From assembly GCA_040881175.1 (NCBI GenBank), contig JBBEDS010000014.1, positions 23,174 to 87,173 on the forward strand: a DNA stretch of 64,000 nucleotides, written 5' to 3'. This DNA is from Minisyncoccota bacterium. Lineage in GTDB: Bacteria > Patescibacteriota > Minisyncoccia > 2-02-FULL-40-12 > IGHO2-01-FULL-4-A. The notes under the pieces were generated by a model. It searched no databases, was not told the origin of the DNA, and saw nothing but the letters and a program-made list of their open reading frames with translations. Both the position numbers and the translations under genes were made by a program. This document shows positions 5,859-63,613 of this stretch, piece by piece. Every line of letters starts with the position of its first letter. The stretch's first letter is position 1.

Positions 5859-5863
5859 AATTT

Positions 5864-6292
5864 ATGAAACTTGAAGTTAAAAAAAGAATTGGAGAAAGTC
5901 TGGGGGTCATTGAATTTGATGACAGGAATCAGTTTAATTTCTCGGAAGGAACAAAAAATTCTTTCAAAGACTATGTCAGTCAACTCATAGAAAAAGGTAT
6001 AGACCAGATAAAAGACATATATGACAAAGAGGCTGCGGCTTTCACGATGATCAAAGTTCCCATACATAGAGACGCTTCTCAATTTCCACTGGCCTTCAAA
6101 GAATTATTGGAAAGGGAGGGCTACGATGTTACTATCATAAGGGAGGACTTGGATAAAGAGATACTTAATTCGTTGAAAGATTTTCCACCGGACAAGAGCA
6201 AAGATAATATTTTATCTCGTCTTCCGAAGATGAGCTATTTAGAAAAAACATATATTCTAAAGGGGTTAAATGATCTAAATAAAAATGTCTAG
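5864..6292 (+). CDS. hypothetical protein (142 aa)
   Basis: ORF track; no motif recognised. Confidence 0.4.
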   Translation: MKLEVKKRIGESLGVIEFDDRNQFNFSEGTKNSFKDYVSQLIEKGIDQIKDIYDKEAAAFTMIKVPIHRDASQFPLAFKELLEREGYDVTIIREDLDKEILNSLKDFPPDKSKDNILSRLPKMSYLEKTYILKGLNDLNKNV

Positions 6293-7280
6293 TTTAAAAG
6301 CACACTTAGTAGAAAATCCGACAGATAAAGAAACCCTGGAAATGAAGGCTACGCGGGATGGGTACGGTAAGGGTTTAGTTGAGGCCGGAGAAAAAGATGA
6401 GCGAGTGGTCGTGCTCTGCGCCGACCTGACTGAATCTACTCGTTCTCATTGGTTTGCCGAAAAGTTTCCGGAAAGATTTATCCAGATCGGGGTAGCCGAA
6501 CAGAACATGGCAGTCATCGCTTCCGGATTAGCTAACTATGGGAAAATACCTTTCATCTCATCCTATGCCGCCTTCTCGCCCGGCAGAAACAATGAACAGA
6601 TCAGAACAAATATTGCGATTAATAATGTGCCCGTTAAAATAGCCGGCGCTCACGCCGGGATATCGGTAGGTCCGGATGGTGCCACCCACCAAGCATTAGA
6701 GGACGCGGGCTTGATGCGCATGCTACCGCGAATGACCGTACTTGTACCTTGCGATGCTATTGAGGCCCAAAAAGCAACCGTAGCCGCAGCCCAGCTACCC
6801 GGTCCAGTATATATCAGATTTGGCAGAGAGAAGTCTCCGGTCTTCACGACTGAGAAAACTCCATTTGAAGTTGGTAAAGCTCAAGTATTCAGAGACGGAA
6901 AAGATGCCGCCATTATCGGTGCCGGAATGCTTATACATAACGCCCTTGTCGCCGCCGAAGAGTTATCGAAGGAAGGACTGGAGGTGGCGATAATAAATTC
7001 TCCAAGCTTAAAACCCTTCGATGTCGATACTCTAGTAGAATATGCTAAAAAGACTGGAGCAGTCGTCAGCGTAGAGGAACATCAAGTCGCCGGAGGACTC
7101 GGCTCAATAGTAGCCGAGGCTCTGGCCCTTAACCATCCGACACCTCAAGAATTCATAGGCGTTCAGGATAAATTCGGAGAGTCCGGTACTCCAGACGAAT
7201 TAATAGAAACCTTCGGGATGGGGGTGGGCTCAATAAAAGAAGCTGTCAAAAAAGCAATCTCCAGAAAAAAATCCGCTTAG
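6285..7280 (+). CDS. transketolase, C-terminal (pyrimidine-binding/C-terminal domain) subunit
   Basis: FIQIGVAEQNMAVIASGLA...GATHQALEDAGLMRMLP...VSVEEHQVAGGLGS; transketolase Pyr and C-terminal domains. Confidence 0.85.
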   Translation: MSSLKAHLVENPTDKETLEMKATRDGYGKGLVEAGEKDERVVVLCADLTESTRSHWFAEKFPERFIQIGVAEQNMAVIASGLANYGKIPFISSYAAFSPGRNNEQIRTNIAINNVPVKIAGAHAGISVGPDGATHQALEDAGLMRMLPRMTVLVPCDAIEAQKATVAAAQLPGPVYIRFGREKSPVFTTEKTPFEVGKAQVFRDGKDAAIIGAGMLIHNALVAAEELSKEGLEVAIINSPSLKPFDVDTLVEYAKKTGAVVSVEEHQVAGGLGSIVAEALALNHPTPQEFIGVQDKFGESGTPDELIETFGMGVGSIKEAVKKAISRKKSA

Positions 7281-7292
7281 CGGATTTTTTTT
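7265..7292. terminator. bidirectional hairpin terminator between tkt C-subunit (+) and UDG (-)
   Basis: AAAAAAATCCGCTTAGCGGATTTTTTTT: A-run, stem ATCCG/CGGAT, T-run. Confidence 0.65.
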
Positions 7293-7833
7293 AGACCAGC
7301 CCTTTGATCTTAGACAAATCTTCTCTGAAAATAGGCTCCCAGTTAATATTCCTCAAAATAGCTGCCGGGTGATAAATGACCAAAACCTTGCGGCCGCGCT
7401 TTTCTATAACCCTCCCGTGATTAGCCGACATGCTTCCCTCTATGCCCAGGCCTGTCATTGATATACGACCCAAAACTACTATCAGCTTCGGATCGACTAT
7501 GTCGATCTCTTTCTCTAAGGACGGCCTGAACTTTTCTATCTCTTCCGGAGTCGGGGTTAATGTTCCACCAAAGGCATCTTGCGGCCTATATTTCAATATA
7601 TTCGATATGTAGAAGTCTGATCTCTTCCAGCCCAGCTCTTCCAGGGTGGTAACTAACAACTTGCCACCCCGGCCGACGAAGGGTTTTCCTTGAATTTCCT
7701 CATCTTTACCGGGGGCCTCTCCTATCATCATTACCTTTGAGTCTGGAGAACCGTCATTAAACACTAAAGTCCTTTTAGGATAGGCTTTTTTGATGGCGTT
7801 AAAAATGTAGTCTAGCTTTTGATTTTTGGTCAT
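7291..7833 (-). CDS. uracil-DNA glycosylase, family 4
   Basis: MMIGEAPGKDEEIQGKPFVGRGGKLL and HPAAILRN motifs typical of family-4 UDG. Confidence 0.8.
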   Translation of the reverse strand: MTKNQKLDYIFNAIKKAYPKRTLVFNDGSPDSKVMMIGEAPGKDEEIQGKPFVGRGGKLLVTTLEELGWKRSDFYISNILKYRPQDAFGGTLTPTPEEIEKFRPSLEKEIDIVDPKLIVVLGRISMTGLGIEGSMSANHGRVIEKRGRKVLVIYHPAAILRNINWEPIFREDLSKIKGLV

Positions 7834-7871: not shown

Positions 7872-7944
7872 GGGTGCGTAGTTCAGTGGTTAGAACGCTG
7901 TCCTGATAAGACAGAGGTCGGAGGTTCGATTCCTCCCGCACCCA
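7872..7944 (+). tRNA. tRNA-Ile (anticodon GAT)
   Basis: Cloverleaf: acceptor GGGTGCG/CGCACCC, anticodon loop CTGATAA, T-loop GGTTCGATTCC; no encoded CCA. Confidence 0.9.
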
Positions 7945-8017
7945 CAGTAGACAGACCGAAGGTCGAAAGGTCTAGGCATATTTTAAAAAAGTTAATTTTG
8001 TCCTTAAAACAACACAT

Positions 8018-8764
8018 ATGGAAAAAGAAATAATGAACCTACCGGCTTCGAAACTACCTTTAGTAGAAGAAGCTCAGGATAAATACGAAACCGCGGATTT
8101 CCGCTCATCGTTCCACTGGAGAGTCTTCCGCATAATGGCGGAGTTCGTCGACGGCTGGCAGTTCTTAACAGACTTCAAAAAAACCGTAACCTTTTTCGGA
8201 TCAGCAAGATTTGAAGAAGGGGACAGGTGGTATGAAGAATCAAGAAAACTCGGCAACCTGCTCGCCAAATCCGGTTTTGACGTAATTACCGGCGGAGGTC
8301 CAGGTATAATGGAGGCAGGAAACCGCGGGGCGCATGAGGCCAAGGAGGCGGCGGGTAAATCAGCCGAAGGAATCGGCAGGTCTATCGGACTGAATATCAA
8401 GTTGCCGTTCGAACAGCGCATTAACCCGTACGTGGACATCGCTATTGCCTTTCACTACTTCTTCGTAAGAAAGGTGATGCTGTCATACTACGCTCAGTCG
8501 TATGTCTTCTTTCCGGGCGGATTCGGAACTTTGGATGAAACTTTTGAGTTGATTACTCTGATCCAGACCAAAAAAATTCAAAGGATCCCGGTCGTATTGG
8601 TAGGCAAAGAATATTGGGAACCATTGATGTCGTGGATAAAAGAAAGCGTTTACGGTAAATTTGGAGCGGTAGATAAGGAAGATATGGATATATACAGAAT
8701 CGTCGACACTGCCGAAGAGGCCTATGAAATAGTAAAGGCCGCTCCGGAAAGAAAATCATTTTAA
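8018..8764 (+). CDS. LOG-family (TIGR00730 Rossmann-fold, cytokinin riboside 5'-monophosphate phosphoribohydrolase-like) protein
   Basis: GGGPGIMEAGNRGA and PGGFGTLDE motifs. Confidence 0.8.
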   Translation: MEKEIMNLPASKLPLVEEAQDKYETADFRSSFHWRVFRIMAEFVDGWQFLTDFKKTVTFFGSARFEEGDRWYEESRKLGNLLAKSGFDVITGGGPGIMEAGNRGAHEAKEAAGKSAEGIGRSIGLNIKLPFEQRINPYVDIAIAFHYFFVRKVMLSYYAQSYVFFPGGFGTLDETFELITLIQTKKIQRIPVVLVGKEYWEPLMSWIKESVYGKFGAVDKEDMDIYRIVDTAEEAYEIVKAAPERKSF

Positions 8765-8770
8765 AAACTG

Positions 8771-8793
8771 CAGGGCGCCATAAAGGCGCCCTG
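8771..8793 (+). terminator. hairpin CAGGGCGCC-ATAAA-GGCGCCCTG after LOG gene (no strong T-run)
   Basis: perfect 9-bp inverted repeat directly after stop; directly followed by tRNA-Ala. Confidence 0.4.
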
Positions 8794-8799
8794 GTTGAA

Positions 8800-8870
8800 G
8801 GGCCTATAGCTTAATGGTCGAGCACCCGCCTTGCACGCGGGAGATCGGGGTTCGATTCCCCGTAGGTCCA
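8800..8870 (+). tRNA. tRNA-Ala (anticodon TGC)
   Basis: Acceptor GGGCCTA/TAGGTCC with G3:U70 Ala identity pair, anticodon loop CTTGCAC, T-loop GGTTCGATTCC. Confidence 0.9.
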
Positions 8871-8871
8871 C

Positions 8872-38337: not shown

Positions 38338-39645
38338 ATGCTAGACACAAAACAATTCGTTTCGGCGATCAAACAGATCACTGAAGAAAAGGGCATTCCC
38401 GAAGAGAAGGTCGTAGAGACAATAGAGGCTGCTATCGCTGCGGCATACAAGAAGGACTATGGAGAGAAGGGCCAGATCGTTCGGGCAAAGTTAGACCAGG
38501 AAACCGGGGATATTTCTATTACCCAGGTTAAGTTTGTAGTGGAAGGAGTAGACGAAGAAGGCAATATTATCGGAGAGCTGCCCGAAAGACATGTCGCCGA
38601 AGCTGCAGCTCATGAGAAGCCACAGGAAACAGAAGAAGAGGGTGGTGATGATCTTAAGGTTAAATTTAACCCTGAAAAATACATAACCCTGGAGGAGGTT
38701 AAGAAGATAAACAAGAAACTGAAGATTGGCGACGAGCTAATTATTAAGCTTGAGCCAAAGACAGAGTTTGGCCGCATTGCTGCCCAAACTGCCAAGCAGG
38801 TTATTATTCAGAGATTGAGAGAAGTTGAGAGGGAGGCGGTATTCAGTGAATTTAAGGAAAAAGAGGGCGAAGTTGCTTCTGGTGTTGTCCAAAGGATCGA
38901 AGGCCGTTTGGTATATATCGATCTTGGCCGGACTAATGGATTGCTCATTCCAGCTGAGCAGCTCTACTTCGACAACTACAGGATTGGGCAGAGATTAAGG
39001 TTCTTAATTCTTAGAGTGGAAGAAACAAATCGTGGACCCGCAGTATTGCTTTCCCGATCCCACCCAAGATTAGTTCTTAAACTTTTTGAATTTGAAGTTC
39101 CGGAAATTGAGGCTGGCAGCGTTGAGATCAAAGCTATTGCTAGAGAGGCTGGATCAAGATCTAAGGTCGCTGTCGTATCGAATGAAGAGGGGGTAGACCC
39201 TATCGGATCGCTCGTTGGACAAAAAGGAGTCAGAGTTCAGACAGTAATTAATGAATTGGGTAACGAGAAGATTGATATCATAGAGTGGAGCGAAGACCCG
39301 GAAAAATTCATTACCAACGCCTTGTCTCCAGCGAAGATCGTTGATGTTAAGGTTGTTAGCCAAGAGAAAAGACATGCCCTAGTTGAAGTTGCTGACGACC
39401 AGTTCTCTCTTGCCATAGGCAAAAAGGGACAAAATGTCAGACTCGCTGCAAAACTTACCGGCTGGAAGATCGATGTCAGGGCCCCGCAGGCCCAGATGTC
39501 AGCCGAAGAGGCTTTGACGGAATCAGAGGAGAGCGAGGAGTCTAATAAAGTAGAAGCTCTTAACGTGGAGGAGCAAGACAACAGGGAAGAGCCGAAAGCA
39601 GAAGAGGTAAAGCCTGAAGGAAAAGAAGAAGACAAAAAAGAATAA
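38338..39645 (+). CDS. nusA: transcription termination/antitermination factor NusA
   Basis: N-terminal domain, S1 domain, two KH domains (GKKGQNVRLAAKLTGWKIDV), acidic tail. Confidence 0.9.
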   Translation: MLDTKQFVSAIKQITEEKGIPEEKVVETIEAAIAAAYKKDYGEKGQIVRAKLDQETGDISITQVKFVVEGVDEEGNIIGELPERHVAEAAAHEKPQETEEEGGDDLKVKFNPEKYITLEEVKKINKKLKIGDELIIKLEPKTEFGRIAAQTAKQVIIQRLREVEREAVFSEFKEKEGEVASGVVQRIEGRLVYIDLGRTNGLLIPAEQLYFDNYRIGQRLRFLILRVEETNRGPAVLLSRSHPRLVLKLFEFEVPEIEAGSVEIKAIAREAGSRSKVAVVSNEEGVDPIGSLVGQKGVRVQTVINELGNEKIDIIEWSEDPEKFITNALSPAKIVDVKVVSQEKRHALVEVADDQFSLAIGKKGQNVRLAAKLTGWKIDVRAPQAQMSAEEALTESEESEESNKVEALNVEEQDNREEPKAEEVKPEGKEEDKKE

Positions 39646-49741: not shown

Positions 49742-50323
49742 TTAAGACTCCAGAATCTGTATTTTTACAGTTCTAATACCGAATTCAAGAGCACTTTCAC
49801 GATCTGGGAACCAGATATCTATCTTGTGCCAGTATCTGCGGTTCATACGGTCTTCAACAACGAAGATCTTATCACCGTAAATATCAGGAATTTTGATCTT
49901 AGTTCCGAAAGGCAAGAAGTTGGCAGCAATGATACCATCACGTACATATGTACCGCGAGCGGTAATAAACGGGGTATCGTCAGTCTGATCCGGAGTTGAG
50001 GAATAAGCGGTAGCAGGAATAGTCATCTCCCTAATGGTTATAACCTCTTTCTCCGTAGCAACCGGGGCAGTATATGGCAATATGAAGCCCTTGGCAGCTA
50101 CTATAGGGTTCAGGGTATTACCAGAAGTGCTTATCTCCGGCAAACGTAGGTCTGGGCCGACATAGCTAGCGTTGGAATCTGCCGTTTCAGAAGCATCCTT
50201 ATTAGACCCCCTAAACCAGTCAAAAAATCCGGCATTTGCATTCGATGTTGGAGCAATTTGGGCTATAATTACAAGCAGTAAAATGGCCGTAATTTGCTTA
50301 ATTTTCATAGTGTTTTTGTTCAT
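49742..50323 (-). CDS. 3D-domain (YuiC/MltA-like) cell-wall-associated protein
   Basis: Signal peptide; TAYSSTPDQTDDTPFITARGTYVRDGIIAANFLPFGTKIKIPDIYGDKIFVVEDRM matches 3D domain. Confidence 0.7.
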   Translation of the reverse strand: MNKNTMKIKQITAILLLVIIAQIAPTSNANAGFFDWFRGSNKDASETADSNASYVGPDLRLPEISTSGNTLNPIVAAKGFILPYTAPVATEKEVITIREMTIPATAYSSTPDQTDDTPFITARGTYVRDGIIAANFLPFGTKIKIPDIYGDKIFVVEDRMNRRYWHKIDIWFPDRESALEFGIRTVKIQILES

Positions 50324-51346: not shown

Positions 51347-51421
51347 TGGAGCGGGTAACGGGATTCGAACCCGTGTTAGCTGATTGGCAACCAGCTGTAA
51401 TAGCCATTATACGATACCCGC
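51347..51421 (-). tRNA. tRNA-Gly (anticodon GCC), CCA encoded
   Basis: Reverse strand GCGGGTA...anticodon loop TTGCCAA...GGTTCGAATCC...TACCCGC-T-CCA. Confidence 0.9.
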
Positions 51422-51442
51422 AGTTTGGTCATTATCACATTT

Positions 51443-52180
51443 TTAGACCTTTTTTTCAAGACTAAAGGCGTGAGATCGGAGATGGTCCTGGTATAGTTCA
51501 ATCCACTTTAGCACACGTTCTTTTAAGGCGCGGCTGCTTACTACGACAGTACAAACTCCATAAGAAAGTCTCTTTGTAGGATGGCGACCTTTTATGTAAA
51601 TTGACTTTTTAAATCTTTCCTGTGGGATTCCGGTAGTCTTGCTCCAAAAGTTTTTTTGAACGGAGTCGACTAAGTCCGGATAAAGTAAAAGCCAGGCGAA
51701 TATTTTGTCAGACTCTATGTTTAGTACATTTTTTAAAAAGAGATAGAAGATTTTTATCATCTCCGGTTCACTATTCCCGAGTCTTACCTGACTTGATTTT
51801 TTTTGTTTCTCGCCCTCTCCCCAGTAGAGCATTAACCCGGCCAGGAATAGGGGATCGTTTTTTAGTTCTGCAAACTCTTTTATAGCAGCTTCTCGATATT
51901 CTTCGTGCTTAATTCTCCAGCGTTCTCTGTTTGCTCGGGACATTAACTCTAACTGTTTGGGGTTAGACAAAGACACCTCTTTGGACAACCGGTTTTTAAT
52001 CTCTTGAGACCAGGGTTCGTTCTTAAACCAGCCAGCAAGTGTGCTGGTAGGAATTCCCAACTCTTTGTAGATTTTTTTATAACTTGTGCCTGCTCGGCGT
52101 AATTCTGTGGCTTTTTGCCTATCTTTTCTCATAAAGTGGATATTTCCGCAAACTCTTGTATCAATATATAGCTTTATCAT
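51443..52180 (-). CDS. HTH-domain protein of unknown function (possible degenerate LAGLIDADG-like / mobile-element relic)
   Basis: Start set at MIKLYIDTR (track ORF N-terminus overlaps tRNA-Phe); N-terminal transposase/resolvase-type HTH (ELRRAGTSYKKIYKELGIPTSTLAGWF); FLAGLMLYWGEGEK motif faintly resembling LAGLIDADG. Confidence 0.45.
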   Translation of the reverse strand: MIKLYIDTRVCGNIHFMRKDRQKATELRRAGTSYKKIYKELGIPTSTLAGWFKNEPWSQEIKNRLSKEVSLSNPKQLELMSRANRERWRIKHEEYREAAIKEFAELKNDPLFLAGLMLYWGEGEKQKKSSQVRLGNSEPEMIKIFYLFLKNVLNIESDKIFAWLLLYPDLVDSVQKNFWSKTTGIPQERFKKSIYIKGRHPTKRLSYGVCTVVVSSRALKERVLKWIELYQDHLRSHAFSLEKKV

Positions 52181-52223
52181 AACACGGGGTTCGGTTTTTG
52201 TGGTTAAAGCTGTGGATAATACA

Positions 52224-52245
52224 AAACGGCCTTTAGGCCGTTTTG
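52224..52245. terminator. perfect hairpin CAAAACGGCC-TTTA-GGCCGTTTTG between HTH gene and tRNA-Phe
   Basis: seen directly. Confidence 0.45.
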
Positions 52246-52257
52246 TATTATAACGTG

Positions 52258-52329
52258 TGCCGCGGGGGTGAATCGAACACCCGACGCCATCCTCTTCAGG
52301 GATGCGCTCTACCACTGAGCTACCGCGGC
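52258..52329 (-). tRNA. tRNA-Phe (anticodon GAA)
   Basis: Reverse strand GCCGCGG-TA-GCTCAGTGGTAGAGC...CTGAAGA...GGTGTTCGATTCACC...CCGCGGC-A. Confidence 0.9.
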
Positions 52330-52440
52330 TTAATTGTTAATCTAAAAATTATATCAGAATTGATTGACTTTTCAATGGACAGGGGCATATAATGCGGGCA
52401 AATAAGATGCTTAAAATATTCAGCTAAAGCGAGGTGGCAA

Positions 52441-53055
52441 ATGGGTAGACGGAGAAAAAATAACCCTGAACGTATCGCTGAGGAAGGGCTAATCCTACGT
52501 TGCCAGAGGGGTGACGAAGACGCCTTTGCTGAGCTTGTTGAGCGATACAGCTCTAAAGTAACCGCAACCGTGCGAGGTATTATCAGGAGATCTAATGACG
52601 TAGAAGACCTTGTGCAGCAGGTATTTACTAAAGCGTGTCTCTCTATTAAGCGTTTCAGGCTCGACTCCTCGTTTGCTACTTGGATACACAGGATAACGGT
52701 CAACGAGTGTTACGACCATCTGCGAAAAAAGAAAGTTCGTAAGCTAACTTATGAGTGTGATCTCGCCGAAGATGATGCGAGAACAGTTGATTGCTTTCCT
52801 GATAGTAGTCCATCAGTTGATGCCCGTATGAGAAACCACAGGTACGTAGCTAGATTGTTATCAAGGGTATCTGCAGAAGACCGCGGCCTCCTAATTCAAA
52901 AAGAAGTCGAGGGCTTCTCAATAGAGGAGCTGTCCGGCATGACCGGCCTAAAAGAGAATACTATCAAGGTCAGATTATTCCGTGCCCGCCAGAAGATGAT
53001 AAAAGCGGCCGCCGGAAGAAATGTATACACGGGCTGTCTTGCAGCCTGCGCCTAA
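52441..53055 (+). CDS. ECF-type RNA polymerase sigma-70 factor
   Basis: Region 2 (EDLVQQVFTKA...FATWIHRITVNECYDHLRKK) and region 4 HTH (IEELSGMTGLKENTIKVRLFRARQKM); GC about 50%, above local 40%. Confidence 0.8.
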   Translation: MGRRRKNNPERIAEEGLILRCQRGDEDAFAELVERYSSKVTATVRGIIRRSNDVEDLVQQVFTKACLSIKRFRLDSSFATWIHRITVNECYDHLRKKKVRKLTYECDLAEDDARTVDCFPDSSPSVDARMRNHRYVARLLSRVSAEDRGLLIQKEVEGFSIEELSGMTGLKENTIKVRLFRARQKMIKAAAGRNVYTGCLAACA

Positions 53056-53060
53056 GATTC

Positions 53061-53083
53061 GCCAGCCAAAAGGCTGGTTTTTT
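53061..53083 (+). terminator. rho-independent terminator after sigma factor
   Basis: GCCAGCCAAAAGGCTGGTTTTTT. Confidence 0.65.
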
Positions 53084-53084
53084 G

Positions 53085-53156
53085 TGGGCGGTATAGGATT
53101 CGAACCTATGGCCCTCTCAACGTCAATGAGATGCTCTACCACTGAGCTAACCGCCC
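53085..53156 (-). tRNA. tRNA-Val (anticodon GAC)
   Basis: Reverse strand GGGCGGT-TA-GCTCAGTGGTAGAGC-A-TCTCA-TTGACGT-TGAGA...GGTTCGAATCC...ACCGCCC. Confidence 0.9.
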
Positions 53157-53175
53157 GGGCACTACCTAGTAAATG

Positions 53176-53259
53176 TGCGGACGAGAGGATTCGAACCTCC
53201 AAGCCCTTGCGAGCACTACCACCTCAAGGTAGCGTGTCTGCCAGTTCCACCACGTCCGC
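53176..53259 (-). tRNA. tRNA-Leu (anticodon GAG), class II with long variable arm
   Basis: Reverse strand GCGGACG...CTACC-TTGAGGT-GGTAG-long variable arm-GGAGGTTCGAATCCTCT-CGTCCGC-A. Confidence 0.85.
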
Positions 53260-53270
53260 CCATGCCGAAT

Positions 53271-53738
53271 TTATTTTTCAGGTTCTTGAGTCGGAGTTTC
53301 TTCCACGGAATTATTTACAGTTTCTTCGGCTGATTTTTCTGCATTCTCCATCTTCGATTCCTCAGAAGCCATTGCGGCCAGGGTGCTGTTCTCAACAATT
53401 TTTGTCTTCTTGCGAGTTTCACGAGTGGTTTTGCCGCGGAGGTAGTAGAGCTTTGCTCGGCGTACTTTAGATTCCCTGACTATTTCAAATTTCTCAATTG
53501 TTGGCATGTGTAGGGGGAATACTCTTTCTACGCCGATACCATTAGATATCTTGCGGACTGTGATAGTTCCATTTGGTCCGGTACCGTGCTTTCTAGCTAT
53601 AACCAAACCTTCAAAAATCTGAGTCCTTGTTTTGGTTCCATCTTTGATTTTCTGGTGCACCCTTAAAGTCAAACCCGGCTTGATTTCGGGCAAGTTCTTA
53701 AGGTTTTGTCTTGAGTTGAAGTGTGTGATCGTATCCAT
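53271..53738 (-). CDS. rplS: 50S ribosomal protein L19 with acidic C-terminal extension
   Basis: [40 protein letters not shown]...[10 protein letters not shown] matches L19. Confidence 0.85.
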
Positions 53739-53764: not shown

Positions 53765-54475
53765 TTAGCTTTTAGGCAAGGTTTTAAGGAATTCGCTTAA
53801 CTCAGGCGAAAGATCAGTCTCTATGGTTAGAGATTCTCCAGAGGGGGAGGTGAATGACAGTTTTTTGGCATGAAGAAAAAGCCGGCCAAGCTCAGGAGGA
53901 CATGTCATACTTTTTGAACGGTAAAGACGGTCGCAAACCACGGTATGCCCTATATACTTCATATGCAATCTTATCTGATGAGTCCTGCCGGTTATTGGCG
54001 TAGCCTCAACGAGGGTATAGTCTTCATATCTCTCTAGAACCTTATAGTCGGTAACTGCCTCTTGTCCCTTGAGTATCCGCTTCCCCAACATACGAGTGGT
54101 TCGGAGTACTCCTAAACGTGCGACTGGGGTATCTACCGTGCCCTCGTTATTCTTTACCTTTCCATAGACCAGAGCGACGTATGTTTTTTTGATATCCCTG
54201 CTCTTGAACAGGTTCTTAAAATATTCAAAACTTTCTGGAGTTTTAGCCAAAATTAAAAGACCAGAGGTTTCTCTATCTAAACGATGAACCACTCCTGGCC
54301 TAAGAGGATCAGTGCCCACACTTTTCGCTGACGGGTATTTTTTGACCAACCATTCGGTTACACTCTCTTGGTGATCAAACTCATTTTTTGGATGAGTGAT
54401 CAGGCCTGATGGCTTGTTGATTATGACGAAGTCATTGTCCTCATAGACGACGGACACCTCATTGATTTTAGACAT
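53765..54475 (-). CDS. RluA-family pseudouridine synthase
   Basis: HRLDRETSGLLILAKT catalytic Asp motif, KTYVALVYG. Confidence 0.85.
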   Translation of the reverse strand: MSKINEVSVVYEDNDFVIINKPSGLITHPKNEFDHQESVTEWLVKKYPSAKSVGTDPLRPGVVHRLDRETSGLLILAKTPESFEYFKNLFKSRDIKKTYVALVYGKVKNNEGTVDTPVARLGVLRTTRMLGKRILKGQEAVTDYKVLERYEDYTLVEATPITGRTHQIRLHMKYIGHTVVCDRLYRSKSMTCPPELGRLFLHAKKLSFTSPSGESLTIETDLSPELSEFLKTLPKS

Positions 54476-54481
54476 TATGTT

Positions 54482-54558
54482 TGGTGGGCGATGCAGGACT
54501 CGAACCTGCGGCCTTCTCGGTGTAAACGAGACGCTCTAGCCAACTGAGCTAATCGCCC
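54482..54558 (-). tRNA. tRNA-Val (anticodon TAC), CCA encoded
   Basis: Reverse strand GGGCGAT-TA-GCTCAGTTGGCTAGAGC-G-TCTCG-TTTACAC-CGAGA...GGTTCGAGTCC...ATCGCCC-A-CCA. Confidence 0.9.
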
Positions 54559-54570
54559 TATTAAGTTTCC

Positions 54571-54647
54571 TGGTGGGCGTGCCTGGACTCGAACCAGGGA
54601 CCCCGGACTTATAAGATCCGTGCTCTAACCAACTGAGCTACACGCCC
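54571..54647 (-). tRNA. tRNA-Ile2 (anticodon TAT, reads AUA), CCA encoded
   Basis: Reverse strand GGGCGTG-TA-GCTCAGTTGGTTAGAGC-A-CGGAT-CTTATAA-GTCCG-GGGTC-CCTGGTTCGAGTCCAGG-CACGCCC-A-CCA; positions 34-36 = TAT. Confidence 0.7.
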
Positions 54648-54696
54648 TATTTCTGGCATTATTTTATTGTTTTTTCACGTTTTCGTCAATCGGAAT

Positions 54697-54721
54697 GAAA
54701 AAGTCGGCGCTTCAGCCGACT
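54697..54721 (-). terminator. rho-independent terminator (minus strand) after Cys-rich small gene
   Basis: minus-strand AGTCGGCTGAAGCGCCGACT + TTTTT. Confidence 0.55.
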
Positions 54722-55017
54722 TAGAATCCGAGATGTTTTTCAAGAGTTTTTACGGTCTCATTACCGGTCAGGCAAGAATCGCAGATTCCGCCCACGGGGG
54801 TTGATTCGCTGAGAGAAGATAAAGCTTCAGAGATCCACCCGAGTGTAGGCCTTATCCTGAATAGCTTGCCCCCAACCGTGCGGTGCTCGGAATAGGTGCT
54901 TAAGTCGCAGTTGTTGACATCTGGGACGTCGCCTTCAAACATTTTCTGAGTTCTCTCTTCGTTGATGAGGTTTTCACACAGGGCGCATTTATAGACTTTT
55001 CGTTGGAGATTCTCCAT
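54721..55017 (-). CDS. hypothetical Cys-containing small protein (98 aa; CALCEN...CDSCLTG zinc-ribbon-like)
   Basis: ORF track; followed by terminator. Confidence 0.4.
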   Translation of the reverse strand: MENLQRKVYKCALCENLINEERTQKMFEGDVPDVNNCDLSTYSEHRTVGGKLFRIRPTLGWISEALSSLSESTPVGGICDSCLTGNETVKTLEKHLGF

Positions 55018-55092: not shown

Positions 55093-56907
55093 CTATGTTA
55101 TTAAAGCGTAGAACTCTTTTTGCTCCAGAGTTTCCTTGGAGATAAGCTCTTTGGCAATTTTGTCCAGAGTTTTTACTTTTTTGCCCAGAATCTCTTTGGC
55201 TTTTTTCATTGCTCTTGAAAGCAAGCCATGAATCTCGCTGTCTATCTTAAATGCGATCTCGTTGGAATAATTTTTATCTGAGCCTATCTCTTTGCCCAAG
55301 AAAACCAGTTCTTCTTTTTCACCAAATACAACTGGGCCGAGTTTGTCGGACATTCCATATTGAGTGACCATCTTGCGAGCCAGGTCCGAGGCAACCTTCA
55401 GGTCGTTGGATGCTCCGGTAGTCAGTTCTTTGAATACCAGACGTTCAGCTGTATAACCGCCGAGAAGTACGGCCAGCTCAGCTTCGAACTCTGACTTTGA
55501 GCGTAAGTGCTTGTCTTCCGTAGGTAATTTAAGGGTGTATCCACCAGCGCGTCCGCGCGATACTATGGAGACTTTGTGGACCGGATCTGTATGTGGCATA
55601 GAGACAGCGACAAGGGCATGACCAGCTTCGTGATATGCAGCTATCTTTTTCTCTTCTTTAGAGAAGGCATGAGAGCGTCTTTCCGGACCCAGCATTACTT
55701 TCTCTAAGGCTTCTAGTAGGTTGTCTTGATTTATCTGCTTCTGATTTTTCCTAGCAGCAAGTATAGCCGCTTCGTTTATTAAATTAGCCAAGTCAGCACC
55801 AGAAAACCCTGGGGTTCTCTCGGCAACTAGTCGCATATTAACCTCTTTCATCAGGGGCTTGTCTGTAGCATGTATTCTCAATATGGCCTCTCTATCTTTC
55901 ATTGATGGCTCATCTAGTATTATCCGTCTGTCGAAGCGTCCCGGTCTAAGAAGAGCGGGGTCCAATATATCCGGACGGTTGGTTGCCGCCATGACAATTA
56001 TTGCATCGTTGGTGGCGAAGCCGTCCATCTCAACCAATATTTGGTTAAGTGTCTGTTCTCTCTCATCGTGTCCGCCGCCAAGACCCGCTCCGCGGTGGCG
56101 ACCGACTGCATCAATCTCATCAACAAAGATTATTGAAGGCGCGGTTTTCTTGGCGACCTCAAATGTATCTCTGACTCGGTTGGCACCGACTCCGACGAAC
56201 ATCTCTACGAATTCGGAACCCGAGACGAAGTAGAATGGGACGTTAGCCTCATTAGCCACTGCTTTGGCTAGCAGTGTCTTACCTGTGCCGGGGGAGCCTA
56301 TCAGAAGAATGCCTCGAGGAATTCGGGCTCCCAGTTTCTGGAATCTCTTAGGATCGCGGAGGAATTCCACGACCTCAGATATTTCTTCCTTAGCTTCGGT
56401 TAAACCGGCAACATCTTTGAAAGTAAGCTTTTTTTTGCCGTTACCGTCGGCCAGCTTAGCTCTTGATTTACCGAAAGTGAAGGCCTGCATTGATCCTCGC
56501 TGTGCTTGGCGGAACATGAACCAGAACAGGAATATGATTAGCAGAAATGGCAGAAGGAAAGGCAAAAAGTTGGCCAGGTAAAATCCAAAGCCCGATTCAT
56601 CCTGTATATCTAGGTTAACTTCTTTTAATCTTTCTTGCTCGACTCCGAGGTTGACCAGGGTCTCGCTAACTGAAGTTCCTGGTTCTCTCTTTGATTCTTC
56701 CTTCTCATCGTTTTTTAACGTGATCTCCAGCTTTTCTCCGCGTACAACGACCTCTTTAACCTCAGATTGATTGATCTGGTTAACTAGGGTTGTGAGTGAG
56801 ACCTCATTTGGTGTTTCGCCAAACGGTGAGTTAAACAGGGCGACGAAACCAGACAAAACCAGAAGTATTAAAAAGACTATTAGAATATATTTTGCGAGTG
56901 ATTTCAT
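55093..56907 (-). CDS. ftsH: ATP-dependent zinc metalloprotease FtsH
   Basis: N-terminal TM pair, AAA+ [17 protein letters not shown] zinc-binding motif. Confidence 0.95.
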
Positions 56908-57047: not shown

Positions 57048-58445
57048 TTAGGAGAGTAGGGCCTTCATCTCCTTGTAGTCGGCGGCATCGATCTCACCCT
57101 TCGCGAAGCGTCGGGCGAGCGCCTTGAGCTCTTCGTTGCCGGAAGTCGCCTGGCCTTCGGTGGCCGGCGCCGCAACCTCTTCGTGCTCTTTGGCGACGCC
57201 ATTGGCGTGACCGTTGGGTTGGACTTCAGCCAGTTTCGGCTGCTCGCTTTCAGCGGCTTGCTTTCGCTCCGCCTCGGCTCGCAGATGATCGGCCCTTTCC
57301 CGCTTGTTCTTCGCCTTGGTCGCGAACGACTGTGCACCGGAATAGTTCTTCGCGGCGACAGCTTCCGTTTCTTTGGCATCAAGCTCGGCCGCTTCGGCCT
57401 CGAGAGACTCCGGCGTTTCCGCCGGGATCACCTTGACCTCCAGCCCGCGCTCCTTCAGAGAAGTAGGAGACTCTTGGCCGTCCTCGTCCTCAATGGAAGC
57501 GCTGGTGGTTACCTTCAGCGGCTCTGCGTTCGCTTCTTCGGCAATGATAGCCTTCTGGGCTTCCGCCAGCTCAGTTTCGAGCTTGTCGGCATCGACTCTG
57601 AGGCGTTTGGCCATCTTCTGGCAGCTACCAGCCTTTTCGTAGTCGCCGGCTGCGGCGGCTGTGTCGGCGTCGGCCTGTTTCTGCTCGGCTTCTGCGCGCA
57701 GGCTTTCGGGAGTGTCCTGCTCTTCTTGCTCTTCGGGTTCCGAAAAGGCCATATTGGCCTCGTCGTCGACCTCTTCTCCGGCTTTGCGCCGTTGCTGATT
57801 CCTGGTAATTCGGTCGATGGTGTCTTGCACCAGTGCGACGTCGGCCAGGATGTGGTTGTAGTCCTTACTCGCTTCGCTTTGATCTGCGAGCCTCTTGAGG
57901 AAGTCGTCGCCTTCCATGTCGGCTTCGGTTTTGATCGTTTGCTTGTACTCAATGTCACCCAAAGCTTCGTTGGCGGCAGCCACCATCTTGAGTCGACCGT
58001 CGAGGTCGGGACGCAGGCCAGCCCGATTCGTGAACCTTACCAGGCGGATCCAGGCTGAGAAGAAGGGAGCGTTCCAGGGGAACAGCGCCCACATGACGTT
58101 CTCGGCGAAGTCCTTCACACCACCGGTCTTGGCGGGGAAGTACATGCCTTTGAGCAGTCCAAAGTTCTGGACGTGCCGGAGGTACTTCTGCTGAAGCTGA
58201 CGGTCGAGGGTTCTGACCTCTTTCCGCAATCCTTCCAGCTCTTTCAGACCTTCCGGAGAGAGCTGACGGTCGTCGCCCTGCTCGTTCGTGATTTTCCAGG
58301 CCTTCCGAATGAGAGAAGCAAGGACTTTGTCTTCCACCATCGGAACTTTGCTTCCGCGGGTGAAATTCTGGCTCCTCTCACCACTGGCGACCTGAGGTTT
58401 GTCTGAGCCGTCTTCATGACGGCGTCGAACGTTCTTATTGGCCAT
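57048..58445 (-). CDS. hypothetical protein (465 aa) with N-terminal unknown domain, Ala/Glu-rich coiled-coil linker and C-terminal SHOCT-like motif; 60-65% GC
   Basis: C-terminus LKALARRFAKGEIDAADYKEMKALLS resembles SHOCT; strong GC skew relative to neighbours; all six frames open (GC artefact ORFs). Confidence 0.55.
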   Translation of the reverse strand: MANKNVRRRHEDGSDKPQVASGERSQNFTRGSKVPMVEDKVLASLIRKAWKITNEQGDDRQLSPEGLKELEGLRKEVRTLDRQLQQKYLRHVQNFGLLKGMYFPAKTGGVKDFAENVMWALFPWNAPFFSAWIRLVRFTNRAGLRPDLDGRLKMVAAANEALGDIEYKQTIKTEADMEGDDFLKRLADQSEASKDYNHILADVALVQDTIDRITRNQQRRKAGEEVDDEANMAFSEPEEQEEQDTPESLRAEAEQKQADADTAAAAGDYEKAGSCQKMAKRLRVDADKLETELAEAQKAIIAEEANAEPLKVTTSASIEDEDGQESPTSLKERGLEVKVIPAETPESLEAEAAELDAKETEAVAAKNYSGAQSFATKAKNKRERADHLRAEAERKQAAESEQPKLAEVQPNGHANGVAKEHEEVAAPATEGQATSGNEELKALARRFAKGEIDAADYKEMKALLS

Positions 58446-58684
58446 TTCTTGGCCCTCCTGTTGTCAAAGATTAGTACAGCGAAAATGCTCTCGAGAGCGC
58501 ATTCTCGCCATCCGGTATTAATATATCAGATGGCTTGACTAATGTCAATAACATAAGTATAGTATTGGAAAGTTAGGAAATAGGCCTTTTAAAATTAATT
58601 GCTACAAGACGGGCCTACTATTAATACATAGCCGACCTATTTTGTAGCAATTTTTAATATCAAAATATGCAGAGGAGGAATTAG

Positions 58685-60070
58685 ATGGTTAAGGTAACCA
58701 CTTTAGGCGGAAGCTCGGGTTTGAGAAGTATCGGCCCCAGCTGTTACGTGGTCGACATTGATGACAAAAGGATCATTGTCGATTGCGGTATTGAGCCAAC
58801 ATTACGGGGGTTCATTCCTCCGAATCTCGACTATCTGAGAGACGGCAAACTGATTGATGCGGTCTGCCTAACACACGGACACGTAGACCATATCGCTTAC
58901 ACTCCAGCCCTTATCCCTTTCATGAAGCCGGATGCGAAAGTATTCATGACTCCACAGACGGCTCAAACGTCATCGTACGTCATTGAAGAACAATTCAAAT
59001 TCGGCATCAGGGTCAAAGACCTTCCGTTCAGTATGCTCGACATGTTCGAGTTCGTTCAAGAAAGGATTTCGATTATTGAGAGGCCGGGGGTTATTGAAAT
59101 TCTGGATGGAATCAGCGCCTACGCCCATCCGGTCGGACATATTCCCGGAGCATGCGGTTTCATCTTCAAACTGCCTGATGGCCGCAAGATGATGATCTCT
59201 GGAGACATGAGCTGGCACAACCAGCCGACAGTCCTCGGTTATCAGCCCATGCCCGATGAGTGGAAGCCCGAAATTCTTGCAGGAATTGATCTGACCGGCG
59301 TAACGGTTGAGAAAAATCCGTCCTGGGAGCTTGAGGCTGACAGGATGGGCAGGGATGTCAGAGAGGTCATGGAAAATGGCGGCTCTGTAGCGATCGCAGC
59401 TTTTGCCAATAACAAGAGCCAATGCGTAGTGTCAGCTCTTCATCAAAGAGGGGTCACCTCATACATGGAGGAAGGATCTGCTGCTACCATTGCTCGCATT
59501 CTGAGTAGGAACAAATGGTCTGACAACGATGTTCTCTTTGACCTCGGTCAGCTTAAAATGATTGAGGACTTCCATCACCGGCGCTATCTAATGGGCCAGA
59601 AAGAGCCGAAAGTGGTAACTTCGCCTTCAGGCATGTGCATAGGCGGCCACATCAGAGAGTGGCTTGAGGTGATCCTGCCGGATCCCAACGCTGCTCTATT
59701 CTTTGCTGGATTTGTCGCCGAAGACAGCAACGGCGGGCGAATTATCAACGCCAAGGAACAAGGCAAAGAAGAGGTCACCCTTGTAGACAACAACGGCTTT
59801 GGCGGTGAAATGGAAACTTTGCCGCTCAGGTGCAGGATAGGGAAGTACAAGCTGACCTCTCATGGCGATGGTCAGAGCATCTTCAACTGGATCGAGCAGA
59901 TCGATCCGCAGATAATTAACCTGACCCACGGGACTCCGGCCGGTAAACTCTATGCGGCCTCGAGACTCCTCAAGAGGAACAGAAAGATCTTTATGAACGT
60001 CGGTCGCCACAAGGTGAGAACGACGAGGGAAATTAATATCAAAGTCCAGCAGTTTGCTCTGCAAACTTAG
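58685..60070 (+). CDS. metallo-beta-lactamase-fold protein, beta-CASP-like (putative nucleic-acid hydrolase)
   Basis: HGHVDH (HxHxDH) motif, further His/Asp ligands, 461 aa; GGAGG SD before ATG. Confidence 0.7.
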   Translation: MVKVTTLGGSSGLRSIGPSCYVVDIDDKRIIVDCGIEPTLRGFIPPNLDYLRDGKLIDAVCLTHGHVDHIAYTPALIPFMKPDAKVFMTPQTAQTSSYVIEEQFKFGIRVKDLPFSMLDMFEFVQERISIIERPGVIEILDGISAYAHPVGHIPGACGFIFKLPDGRKMMISGDMSWHNQPTVLGYQPMPDEWKPEILAGIDLTGVTVEKNPSWELEADRMGRDVREVMENGGSVAIAAFANNKSQCVVSALHQRGVTSYMEEGSAATIARILSRNKWSDNDVLFDLGQLKMIEDFHHRRYLMGQKEPKVVTSPSGMCIGGHIREWLEVILPDPNAALFFAGFVAEDSNGGRIINAKEQGKEEVTLVDNNGFGGEMETLPLRCRIGKYKLTSHGDGQSIFNWIEQIDPQIINLTHGTPAGKLYAASRLLKRNRKIFMNVGRHKVRTTREINIKVQQFALQT

Positions 60071-62437: not shown

Positions 62438-63613
62438 TTATTCGGTTTTTTCTTTCTGAAGAGTGAGTATCATCTTGTGTTCCTTCGAGTCGATTGATAC
62501 GATCGCTACCTTTATTTTATCTTCAAGTTTGAAATCTTCTCCCGGTTTCTTGTCTCCCAGTTCTGATACTGGGATAAGGCCGGTTATCTCTTCATCCAAT
62601 TTTACCAGCATTCCATAATTGGTCATTTTGGCAACCTCTCCTTCTACTTCCTGGCCGACGGAATATTTCTCTTCTATCTTTTGCCATGGGTCTTCCTTGA
62701 GTGCTTTAAGAGATAGAGAAATTTTACTACCATCGATATCTATGATCTTAGCTTTTACAATCTGACCGCTCTTTAGCACATCATGCGGACTTTCTATTAG
62801 CTTCCAATCTATTTCAGAAATATGTATCAACCCTTCTATTCTGGTTGAAGTCTGTCCTTCTGACACTCCCTTCTCGTCAGTAGCAGGGGGGTTAATAAGG
62901 GCAAAAGCACCGAAGTCCGTTACGTCTGTTATCTCAGCTTCGACGACATCTCCGATTGTGAATTTAGAGATCTCCTCTTTGATTTGCTCGTCATTGATAG
63001 CCTTTTCCGAAACAATCAGCTTGTTCTCGCTTTCAGAGAAATCAAGAATTTTAACTTTGATATCCTGATTACGGAATTTTTGTAGAGCCTGGACTATCTT
63101 TGTAGTGTCTCCACCATCTATTTTGGGGTAGTTCTCCGGCAGTAGCTGAGATAGAGGTAAGAATCCTTGGATCCCATTTATCTCAACCAGAAGGCCTCCT
63201 TTGTTTATGTTAACAACTTTGGTCTCTATGACTTCGCCGCTTTCTTTCTTGTTCCTAATATCCTGCCAGGCGGTGGTCATCTGGGCTCTCTTTAGAGACA
63301 GCTCGCGGTAACCGTCATCATTCTCTATCTCAAGCAAGATAGCCGAAACTTTTTGTCCGGCTTTCAAAGCTTTCTGTAAATTCGGGTTGTCATAGAACTC
63401 GCCGGGATAAACCGCGCCAGTTCCCAAGGAGCCCAGGTCGATCAAGACCGCATTTTTTCCGATACTAATAATTTCGCCGGTAAGAACCTGTCCGACCTTG
63501 GGCAGATCAAACTCGGCTTTTGCAAGAAGATCTTTCATCGAAAGATCAGAGTTTTCTAGTTGAATAGCATTTTCCATGTGGCGAAGCATAACACCTTTCT
63601 TTATATCTGGCAA
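62438..63613 (-). CDS. rpsA: 30S ribosomal protein S1 (short form, four S1 domains)
   Basis: Repeated S1 OB-fold motifs (GQVLTGEIISI, GEVIETKVVNI, GDVVEAEITDV, GQIVKAKIIDI). Confidence 0.85.
   Translation of the reverse strand: MPDIKKGVMLRHMENAIQLENSDLSMKDLLAKAEFDLPKVGQVLTGEIISIGKNAVLIDLGSLGTGAVYPGEFYDNPNLQKALKAGQKVSAILLEIENDDGYRELSLKRAQMTTAWQDIRNKKESGEVIETKVVNINKGGLLVEINGIQGFLPLSQLLPENYPKIDGGDTTKIVQALQKFRNQDIKVKILDFSESENKLIVSEKAINDEQIKEEISKFTIGDVVEAEITDVTDFGAFALINPPATDEKGVSEGQTSTRIEGLIHISEIDWKLIESPHDVLKSGQIVKAKIIDIDGSKISLSLKALKEDPWQKIEEKYSVGQEVEGEVAKMTNYGMLVKLDEEITGLIPVSELGDKKPGEDFKLEDKIKVAIVSIDSKEHKMILTLQKEKTE

Follow-up and report, generated by a model that had tools for sequence, protein, structure and literature searches.

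A genomic tRNA-Ile(UAU) as the probable AUA decoder in a Patescibacteria chromosome segment and its distribution among related genomes

The stretch of DNA analysed here, called the window throughout, comprises 64,000 nucleotides of a Minisyncoccota bacterium (assembly GCA_040881175.1, contig JBBEDS010000014.1, positions 23,174 to 87,173) and is a typical chromosome segment of the Patescibacteria, or Candidate Phyla Radiation (CPR), with a G+C content (GC) of 39-52%. On its minus strand lies a gene for a tRNA-Ile with the anticodon UAU. The best explanation, to which we assign a probability of about 0.62, is that this gene encodes a functional, vertically inherited tRNA-Ile(UAU) which would read the codon AUA by direct pairing of U34 with A. 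How AUA is kept apart from AUG is a long-standing question about the genetic code, and the accepted view is that bacteria solve it with lysidine, tRNAs with a UAU anticodon being rare curiosities. Since TilS, the enzyme that makes lysidine, acts on C34 and position 34 is here a T, the tRNA described below cannot be a TilS substrate.

ARAGORN called ten tRNA genes in the window and assigned the one at 54571..54647 to Ile, with anticodon tat. The Rfam tRNA model RF00005 matched 54574..54647 over its full length (model positions 1-71) with 71.4 bits, the gathering score being 29, and E = 1.3e-13. Read directly, the molecule has a 7-bp acceptor stem (GGGCGTG/CACGCCC), followed after TA by a D arm with a 4-bp stem (GCTC-AGTTGGTTA-GAGC) and, after a single A, by the anticodon arm (CGGAT-CTTATAA-GTCCG), whose 5-bp stem is closed by the pair U31-G39. 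The 7-nt loop CTTATAA holds U33, the anticodon U34-A35-U36, A37 and A38. The variable loop GGGTC, a T arm with a 5-bp stem (CCTGG-TTCGAGT-CCAGG), the discriminator A73 and an encoded CCA complete the gene. Thermodynamic folding alone gave -32 kcal/mol (z = -2.78), with the anticodon arm shifted in register. Since the covariance model and the covariation seen in 60 homologues both back the cloverleaf, it is far more than a chance match, and 54571..54647 is confirmed as a genuine canonical tRNA with a UAU anticodon. An earlier note, made from the sequence of the window without database searches, had described this anticodon, the cloverleaf and the encoded CCA, and ARAGORN, Rfam and direct reading bore it out in every detail; the ARAGORN run that it had proposed as a check assigned no different anticodon. 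The canonical tRNA-Ile(GAU) which it had mentioned is also present, and the view of tRNA-Ile(UAU) as an AUA decoder beside a normal tRNA-Ile(GAU) is supported.

Species-representative genomes were scanned with the pattern GGTTAGAGC-N6-CTTATAA-N15-TTCRA, which returned at least 120 loci, taken as 8-kb blocks (0.85 Mb together). ARAGORN found tRNA-Ile(tat) in 119 of the 120 listed loci, the remaining one being cut by a contig end. The window copy was aligned with 59 copies from CPR-labelled genomes, and in these 60 sequences 98.8% of the 1260 stem cells were standard pairs, compared with 23-44% in a control where the partners were slid by 1-3 columns. Double-sided changes were found in 296 cells and compensatory change in 15 of the 21 pairs, the D stem in this count being partly fixed by the search pattern. 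Judged from this alignment, the structure of tRNA-Ile(UAU) is under purifying selection. Moreover all 143 other copies obtained from two independent searches have UAU, along with compensatory changes in the stems, so that neither a recent C34-to-T mutation nor a pseudogene is a tenable reading. Among the matches listed, the sequences nearest to the window tRNA are other UAU tRNAs, with a median identity of 77% and a maximum of 87%, and the nearest non-UAU classes are Val, Ile(GAU) and Met, which form the class Ia group. With the resident tRNA-Ile(GAU) it shares only 69% identity, and is therefore not a recent derivative of it.

By record title, at least 59 of these loci come from CPR-labelled genomes, which cover many CPR classes: Saccharibacteria, Parcubacteria/Paceibacteria, Woese-, Shapiro- and Dojkabacteria, Microgenomates and Peri-/Peregrinibacteria, together with Magasanik-, Falkow-, Kuenen-, Uhr-, Komeili-, Buchanan- and Moranbacteria. 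A further 30 listed loci are unlabelled or doubtfully labelled, and many of them have a CPR-type tRNA synteny. L011, L028 and others are entitled 'uncultured Gammaproteobacteria' (metagenome-assembled genomes, MAGs, filed as third-party annotation) and carry CPR-type tRNAs, Ile(UAU)-Val or Met-Ile(UAU) tandems and low GC; these labels look wrong. The matches listed also include seven archaeal loci, mostly of the DPANN group (Micrarchaeota), and the others are mainly Ignavibacteria, with a few Firmicutes, Bacteroidetes, Dormiibacterota and Planctomycetota and one chlamydia.

A sample unbiased with respect to the anticodon was obtained from the best 80 metagenome relatives of the window FtsH (50-73% identity), whose gene lies just upstream of the tRNA. 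Of these ftsH-anchored loci 24 contain tRNA-Ile(UAU), and in 18 of the 66 with enough flank it lies at most 1.2 kb downstream of ftsH; a CAU tRNA at the ftsH-proximal site was found in none of the 80. A neighbour-joining tree of FtsH placed the window with L036, L126 and L127 in a large clade which holds all the CPR-labelled sequences, and nearly every member of this clade has tRNA-Ile(UAU). This distribution, together with the recurrence of the gene cluster described below, implies that tRNA-Ile(UAU) is an old, vertically inherited trait of CPR and no rarity in the lineage. The earlier note had called such genes rare, which holds for cultured reference genomes: Taniguchi 2013 listed nine species (PMC3575796), the tRNAscan-SE 2.0 survey of 2021 counted 17 bacterial genomes with tRNA-Ile(UAU) in place of Ile2 (PMC8450103), and a 2026 preprint still speaks of 'rare cases'. 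For the lineage of the window it does not hold, given the CPR genomes and FtsH relatives counted above.

Codon usage, which the earlier note had also suggested examining, points to a demand for the tRNA. In 65 non-overlapping open reading frames (ORFs) of the window (19,033 codons) Ile is encoded 608 times by ATA, 467 times by ATT and 354 times by ATC, and ATA is thus the commonest Ile codon (42.5%, or 31.9 per 1000, in a genome of ~43% GC). For comparison, AUA occurs 4.9 times per 1000 codons in E. coli and 39 times in Borrelia burgdorferi, given as the upper end (PMC12514573). ATA accounts for 22 of the 36 Ile codons of ftsH and 17 of the 41 of rpsA, in keeping with the preference across the genome; nusA (38338-39645, plus strand) has only 5 ATA among 35 Ile codons. 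The median ATA share among the matches listed is 0.24 in the tRNA-bearing CPR loci, and it ranges from 0.13 to 0.27 in CPR-labelled loci of 0.44-0.45 GC; the share in the window is high even for CPR. In the archaeal loci (L037, L048, L058, L075, L083, L086 and L111) the ATA share of Ile codons is 48-65% although their GC is 50-58%, a preference that exceeds that of most CPR loci among the matches listed.

The meaning of AUA was examined in alignments of FtsH, S1, L19, the pseudouridine synthase and one more conserved ORF (49742..50323) with homologues that were themselves translated by the standard code. The residues opposite ATA were I in 44%, V in 22% and L in 13% of cases, and ATT and ATC gave a similar profile, whereas ATG gave M in 33% and L in 23%. 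As the ATA positions match the profile of ATT and ATC and not that of ATG, AUA means Ile in these genes.

No tilS was found in the window, either with the PP-loop motif SGGxDS or by tblastn with E. coli TilS (E <= 1), and none of its ten tRNAs has a CAU anticodon. The same motif and tblastn searches found no tilS in the 120 listed genome loci, a negative result that is weak by itself as these loci are only 8-kb blocks. The CAU tRNAs that stand beside UAU genes in relatives occur as pairs, one of initiator type and one of elongator type. The linkage tilS-(hpt)-ftsH is a classical one, and in the ftsH-anchored sample the two tests detected tilS in 10 of 80 loci, always immediately upstream of ftsH. 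Within 10 kb on either side, none of the 80 loci combines tilS with tRNA-Ile(UAU), an exclusion with a hypergeometric P = 0.022, uncorrected for phylogeny. L138 is the one tilS locus inside the CPR clade of FtsH. Its TilS (366 aa, PF01171) has Candidatus Moranbacteria/Moraniibacteriota as the source of nine of ten named NCBI matches, and two complete Moranbacteria genomes (CP064994.1 and CP064975.1) have the order pseudouridine synthase-rpsA-gmk-tilS-ftsH-orf-tRNAVal(GAC), with no tRNA-Ile(UAU) within 10 kb of that locus in either. In the window, and in those closest relatives where rpsA and ftsH adjoin, the space between these two genes, which is the place of tilS in Moranbacteria, has no tilS. 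In the CPR neighbourhood one finds either tilS or the UAU tRNA, and the window has the UAU form; on this moderate evidence we consider it rather probable that the organism is without a lysidine system.

Some candidates in these loci were discarded. The ORFs upstream of ftsH in CPR loci, considered as divergent TilS or Hpt, proved to be a TrpRS/TyrRS-type synthetase, EF-P, flavodoxin, TruD, EamA and a phosphoesterase. An exact exchange of tilS for the tRNA was considered for L150, whose FtsH is, among the UAU loci, the nearest to that of the tilS-bearing L138; the genes that precede ftsH there lie on the opposite strand, and no clean comparison results. In L168, which belongs to the tilS-bearing FtsH clade, three CAU tRNAs (one of initiator type) lie directly upstream of tilS-ftsH (5376-7376), likely a tRNA-Ile2(CAU)/tilS gene cluster.

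Several points weigh against our interpretation. The either/or statistic is confounded by phylogeny, with nine of the ten tilS loci forming an FtsH clade of their own, mostly of high GC and probably outside CPR. The 64 kb amount to an estimated 6-8% of a genome of ~1 Mb, to which other assemblies (contigs of 8.4 kb in GCA_040900475.1) add only ~2 kb, and the remainder could hold tilS, ileS and a third tRNA(CAU). Moranbacteria show that TilS occurs in CPR, and L032, labelled Moraniibacteriota, carries a UAU tRNA, so that tilS and the UAU tRNA could coexist in that order. Lactobacillus casei, L. plantarum, Cyanothece and Ferrimonas keep both tRNA-Ile(UAU) and tilS (PMC3575796). Finally C29-G41, one of the five non-anticodon elements recognized by E. 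coli IleRS (isoleucyl-tRNA synthetase), is absent: the pair 29-41 is G-C in the window tRNA and variable across the family.

A first alternative is that tRNA-Ile(UAU) is functional but redundant, working beside a tRNA-Ile2(CAU)/TilS system, which we regard as possible yet unlikely. The coexistence documented in other bacteria (PMC3575796), the presence of TilS in at least one CPR order, with a UAU tRNA in the Moraniibacteriota-labelled L032, and the more than 90% of the genome that lies outside the window all speak for it. It is opposed by the lack of tilS and tRNA(CAU) in the window, by the absence of any joint occurrence in the ftsH-anchored loci and by the rpsA-ftsH interval, which is without tilS in the window and in the closest relatives where these genes adjoin; a streamlined genome of ~1 Mb would also be unlikely to keep two AUA decoders and an enzyme. 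We therefore somewhat favour tRNA-Ile(UAU) as the sole AUA decoder of the organism, with the TilS/tRNA-Ile2(CAU) system presumably lost. The statement of the earlier note that a UAU gene implies loss of tilS goes too far by itself, both being kept in some bacteria (PMC3575796).

The surroundings of the gene (Table 1) bear on its origin. On the minus strand the order is rpsA, an insert of ~5.5 kb, ftsH, a 98-aa ORF, a terminator-like hairpin, a promoter-like site that ends 13 nt ahead of the 5' end of the tRNA, and tRNA-Ile(UAU), followed after 12 nt by tRNA-Val(UAC) and 6 nt further by the start of the gene for an RluA-family synthase, then rplS and the genes for tRNA-Leu(GAG), tRNA-Val(GAC), tRNA-Phe and tRNA-Gly. 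The cluster ftsH-tRNAIle(UAU)-tRNAVal-rluA-like-rplS-tRNALeu(GAG) recurs in Saccharibacteria- and Parcubacteria-labelled genomes, where rpsA lies 57-173 nt upstream of ftsH, and the order Leu(GAG)-Val(GAC)-Phe-Gly is repeated in the CPR relatives L024, L030, L036, L055, L131 and L149. A tRNA-Val stands within 300 nt of about 30 of 120 tRNA-Ile(UAU) genes (119 listed loci and the window). The RluA-like gene is probably co-transcribed with the tRNA pair, and its orthologue is found in the same neighbourhood of relatives, including the tilS-bearing Moranbacteria (41% identity).

Table 1. Positions of tRNA-Ile(UAU), of its neighbours and of the loci compared with them. Positions are those of the window, except in the last row, where they are those of the named loci.
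Feature	Position	Strand	Basis and remarks
tRNA-Ile(UAU) with encoded CCA, 77 nt	54571..54647	-	ARAGORN, Rfam, direct reading, covariation among 60 CPR copies
tRNA-Ile(GAU), AUU/AUC decoder	7872..7945	+	ARAGORN; Rfam 76.4 bits
rpsA (S1)	62438..63613	-	NCBIfam and Pfam S1 matches; directly upstream of ftsH in relatives
ftsH, conserved upstream neighbour of the tRNA	55093..56907	-	Pfam domains, synteny
98-aa ORF between ftsH and the tRNA	54721..55017	-	Gene call in three assemblies
Terminator-like hairpin and T-run closing the ftsH/98-aa ORF unit	54701..54722	-	Consensus scan; 8-bp stem, 5 G-C pairs
Sigma-70-like promoter match TTGACG-17 nt-TAAAAT	54661..54689	-	Consensus scan, 10/12 matches; pattern match only
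tRNA-Val(UAC), encoded CCA; follows tRNA-Ile(UAU) in tandem after 12 nt	54482..54558	-	ARAGORN; Rfam 73.3 bits
RluA-family pseudouridine synthase, 236 aa, without S4 domain	53765..54475	-	TIGR00005 217 bits, PF00849
rplS (ribosomal protein L19), conserved cluster member	53271..53738	-	TIGR01024, PF01245; synteny
Downstream tRNA series Leu(GAG), Val(GAC), Phe(GAA), Gly(GCC)	51347..53259	-	ARAGORN
Moranbacteria tilS loci, counterpart of the window arrangement	L206 5498-13868; L208 8336-13871; L138 10-4046

The window FtsH is identical to an FtsH filed at NCBI under '[Candidatus Paceibacterota bacterium]' and occurs in the MAG GCA_040900475.1 and in Logan assemblies; the nearest FtsH of a species-representative genome among the matches listed is that of a Saccharibacteria-labelled MAG (L036, 72% identity). 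The 98-aa ORF gave no Pfam or NCBIfam match and no tblastn match in the 120 listed genome loci. Between rpsA and ftsH, positions 57048-60070 (with ORFs on to ~62358) encode an acidic, SHOCT-tailed protein of 465 aa and a beta-CASP nuclease of the metallo-beta-lactamase type (461 aa). This insert has a GC of ~0.52 and uses ATA for 0 of 13 and 3 of 40 Ile codons, compared with 42% genome-wide; its junction is also present in an independent Logan assembly, and it looks like inserted foreign DNA rather than a mis-assembly.

Such a compositionally deviant insert at 57.0-60.1 kb, just upstream of ftsH, and the fact that phage-borne tRNA genes are common could suggest that the tRNA itself was imported by a phage or mobile element, frequent carriers of tRNA-Ile(UAU), and stands outside the core translation apparatus of the host. 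The gene nevertheless sits between the core genes ftsH, rluA-like and rplS, in an arrangement that many CPR relatives share without the insert. Its closest sequences among the matches listed are chromosomal CPR copies (up to 87% identity), and the core genes of the host are rich in AUA whereas the insert is poor in it. No phage or integrase context was found for tRNA-Ile(UAU), and the syntenic site is occupied in many relatives. A foreign origin is thus largely refuted by synteny and appears very improbable.

Other parts of the window deserve brief mention. It includes dnaA-dnaN, yidC, tyrS, ruvABC, nusA, tig, a type IV pilus ATPase, PBP1, a sortase and many ORFs without a family match. Inside the tRNA cluster an ORF of 229-290 aa (51443-52315, minus strand), without Pfam or NCBIfam match, reaches in its long form into the 3' end of tRNA-Phe. 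Copies close to the tRNA cluster also occur in CPR relatives (L127, 66% identity; L116, 49%), and the motif FLAGLMLYWGEGEK of this ORF is LAGLIDADG-like by eye only. The genes for tRNA-Ile(GAU) and tRNA-Ala(UGC), usually a pair in the rRNA spacer, are split at 7872-8871 (plus strand) by an ORF of the LOG/'lysine decarboxylase' family (8018..8764), and no rRNA was detected in the 64 kb. At about 2 kb to the left of the window start, the end of contig 17 of GCA_040900475.1 (L210, 1-406) holds a partial ORF of a LAGLIDADG_2 homing endonuclease, and an intron-bearing rRNA gene may lie just beyond the start of the window.

We propose that transcription of tRNA-Ile(UAU) would start at the promoter-like site ahead of it and extend over tRNA-Val(UAC) and probably over the RluA-like gene. 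It would then carry N6-threonylcarbamoyladenosine at position 37 (t6A37), as generally expected after U36, and be charged by IleRS through A35, U36, A37/A38, A73, C4-G69 and U12-A23. The identity elements of E. coli tRNA-Ile are said to be, after work by Nureki et al. in 1994, A35, U36, A37, A38, A73, C4-G69, U12-A23 and C29-G41, and the window tRNA has all of them up to and including U12-A23. The charged tRNA would supply Ile at AUA, the commonest Ile codon of the genome. A synthetase adapted to U34 would be expected to have Arg/Lys where E. coli has W905, or to be a eukaryote-type IleRS2; no ileS was found in the window. Large class I synthetase genes beside the tRNA in eight loci, considered as IleRS, are ValRS (valyl-tRNA synthetase) by their KMSKS motif and C-terminal coiled coil; ValRS adjoins the tRNA-Val/tRNA-Ile(UAU) pair in the Parcubacteria-type loci L007, L025, L028, L045, L052, L072, L092 and L110.

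The reading of the gene as decaying or mis-assigned, for instance as a pseudogene or as a tRNA-Ile2(CAU) or tRNA-Met with C34 changed to T, could appeal to the missing C29-G41 pair and to the fact that ARAGORN takes the amino acid from the anticodon alone; it is rendered highly improbable by the high score over the full covariance model, the fixation of UAU with compensatory stem changes, the absence of CAU from the syntenic site in the ftsH-anchored relatives, the class Ia character of the nearest non-UAU tRNAs and the behaviour of AUA positions as Ile.

By analogy with Mycoplasma mobile and a B. subtilis suppressor tRNA, misreading of AUG by tRNA-Ile(UAU) would probably be limited by a weakly G-pairing, possibly unmodified U34, and the context given by the ribosome or the tRNA, as well as a competing tRNA-Met, may further help to avoid it. 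In both of these tRNAs U34 is unmodified, and binding is strong to AUA and weak to AUG, an effect to which the cognate ribosome contributes (PMC3575796, PMC3919564); this runs counter to the suggestion of the earlier note that a UAU tRNA implies a special anticodon modification. None of the U34-modifying enzymes MnmA/E/G was found in the window. Its SpoU methylase, considered as the wobble 2'-O-methylase TrmL, is RlmB/TrmH-like. The RluA-like synthase was considered as an enzyme dedicated to tRNA-Ile(UAU), by analogy with the eukaryotic PsiAPsi, and this was rejected as unsupported: it matches the general RluA subfamily only, and Moranbacteria have the orthologue with no nearby UAU tRNA. With no U34 enzyme in the window, a SpoU protein of RlmB/TrmH type and an RluA-like orthologue beside tilS, there is no evidence for a dedicated modification.

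For the window alone, the gene is an ordinary and lineage-typical part of the translation apparatus. On the wider scale, we see about an even chance that in most of CPR a genomic tRNA-Ile(UAU) has replaced tilS and tRNA-Ile2(CAU), the two being mutually exclusive around rpsA-ftsH, with tilS kept or regained in Moranbacteria, with AUA promoted to the most used Ile codon of some members, the window organism included, and with DPANN archaea as a parallel case. If so, AUA would have been freed from a slow minor tRNA that depends on modification, and a large share of bacterial diversity would separate AUA from AUG without modifying C34; adaptation of IleRS, the unusual CPR ribosome or a novel modification of U34 would be the candidate means. 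Cultured Saccharibacteria would then offer a tractable system for learning how U34 avoids AUG, and models of codon usage and expression in CPR should treat AUA as fully served, or even preferred. The gene tilS belongs to the bac120 marker set of GTDB, and it would be a poor universal marker for CPR if the UAU tRNA is their standard AUA decoder. In the literature searched we found no papers linking CPR, Patescibacteria or Saccharibacteria with lysidine or tilS, and the lineage-level pattern, a UAU tRNA widespread in CPR and alternating with tilS at rpsA-ftsH, appears under-described.

The nearest known system is tRNA-Ile2(UAU) of Mycoplasma mobile (PMC3575796), likewise a UAU tRNA encoded in a small, reduced genome and one that needs no lysidine to read AUA. 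There, however, loss of tilS, an unmodified U34, Arg865 of IleRS and ribosome-dependent rejection of AUG were demonstrated by experiment, whereas the window tRNA is known from its sequence; moreover the M. mobile case is an isolated event in Tenericutes, while the type found here is spread over a whole radiation with conserved synteny. The 'tRNA-Ile3(UAU)' of Bifidobacterium and Neorickettsia (PMC8450103) replaces tRNA-Ile2(CAU) where tilS is absent and is, as here, a trait of whole lineages. It is associated with a eukaryote-type, horizontally acquired IleRS2 and belongs to another phylum, its origin being likely independent. Lactobacillus casei, L. plantarum, Cyanothece and Ferrimonas (PMC3575796) have the same kind of gene but retain tilS, a combination never seen in the ftsH neighbourhoods of the window's relatives.

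In the suppressor of a B. subtilis tilS deletion, tRNA-Ile1(G34U) (Fabret 2011; Kohrer 2014, PMC3919564), unmodified U34 reads AUA well and AUG poorly with the ribosome of a bacterium and can replace TilS. That tRNA is a laboratory mutant of tRNA-Ile1, whereas the window tRNA, at the 69% identity given above, is too distant from the resident tRNA-Ile(GAU) to be a recent derivative of it. The archaeal tRNA-Ile(UAU) of Nanoarchaeum equitans, Korarchaeum and the DPANN Micrarchaeota found here is similar in occurring in ultra-small, symbiotic, reduced lineages, in using UAU instead of a modified C34 and in the heavy use of AUA; it differs in domain, in replacing TiaS and agmatidine rather than TilS and lysidine, and in the body of the tRNA. 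The canonical tRNA-Ile2(CAU) with TilS performs the same task of reading AUA as Ile apart from AUG, but the window tRNA lacks its defining C34. The window gene is thus a member of the known class of bacterial tRNA-Ile(UAU) ('tRNA-Ile3') AUA decoders.

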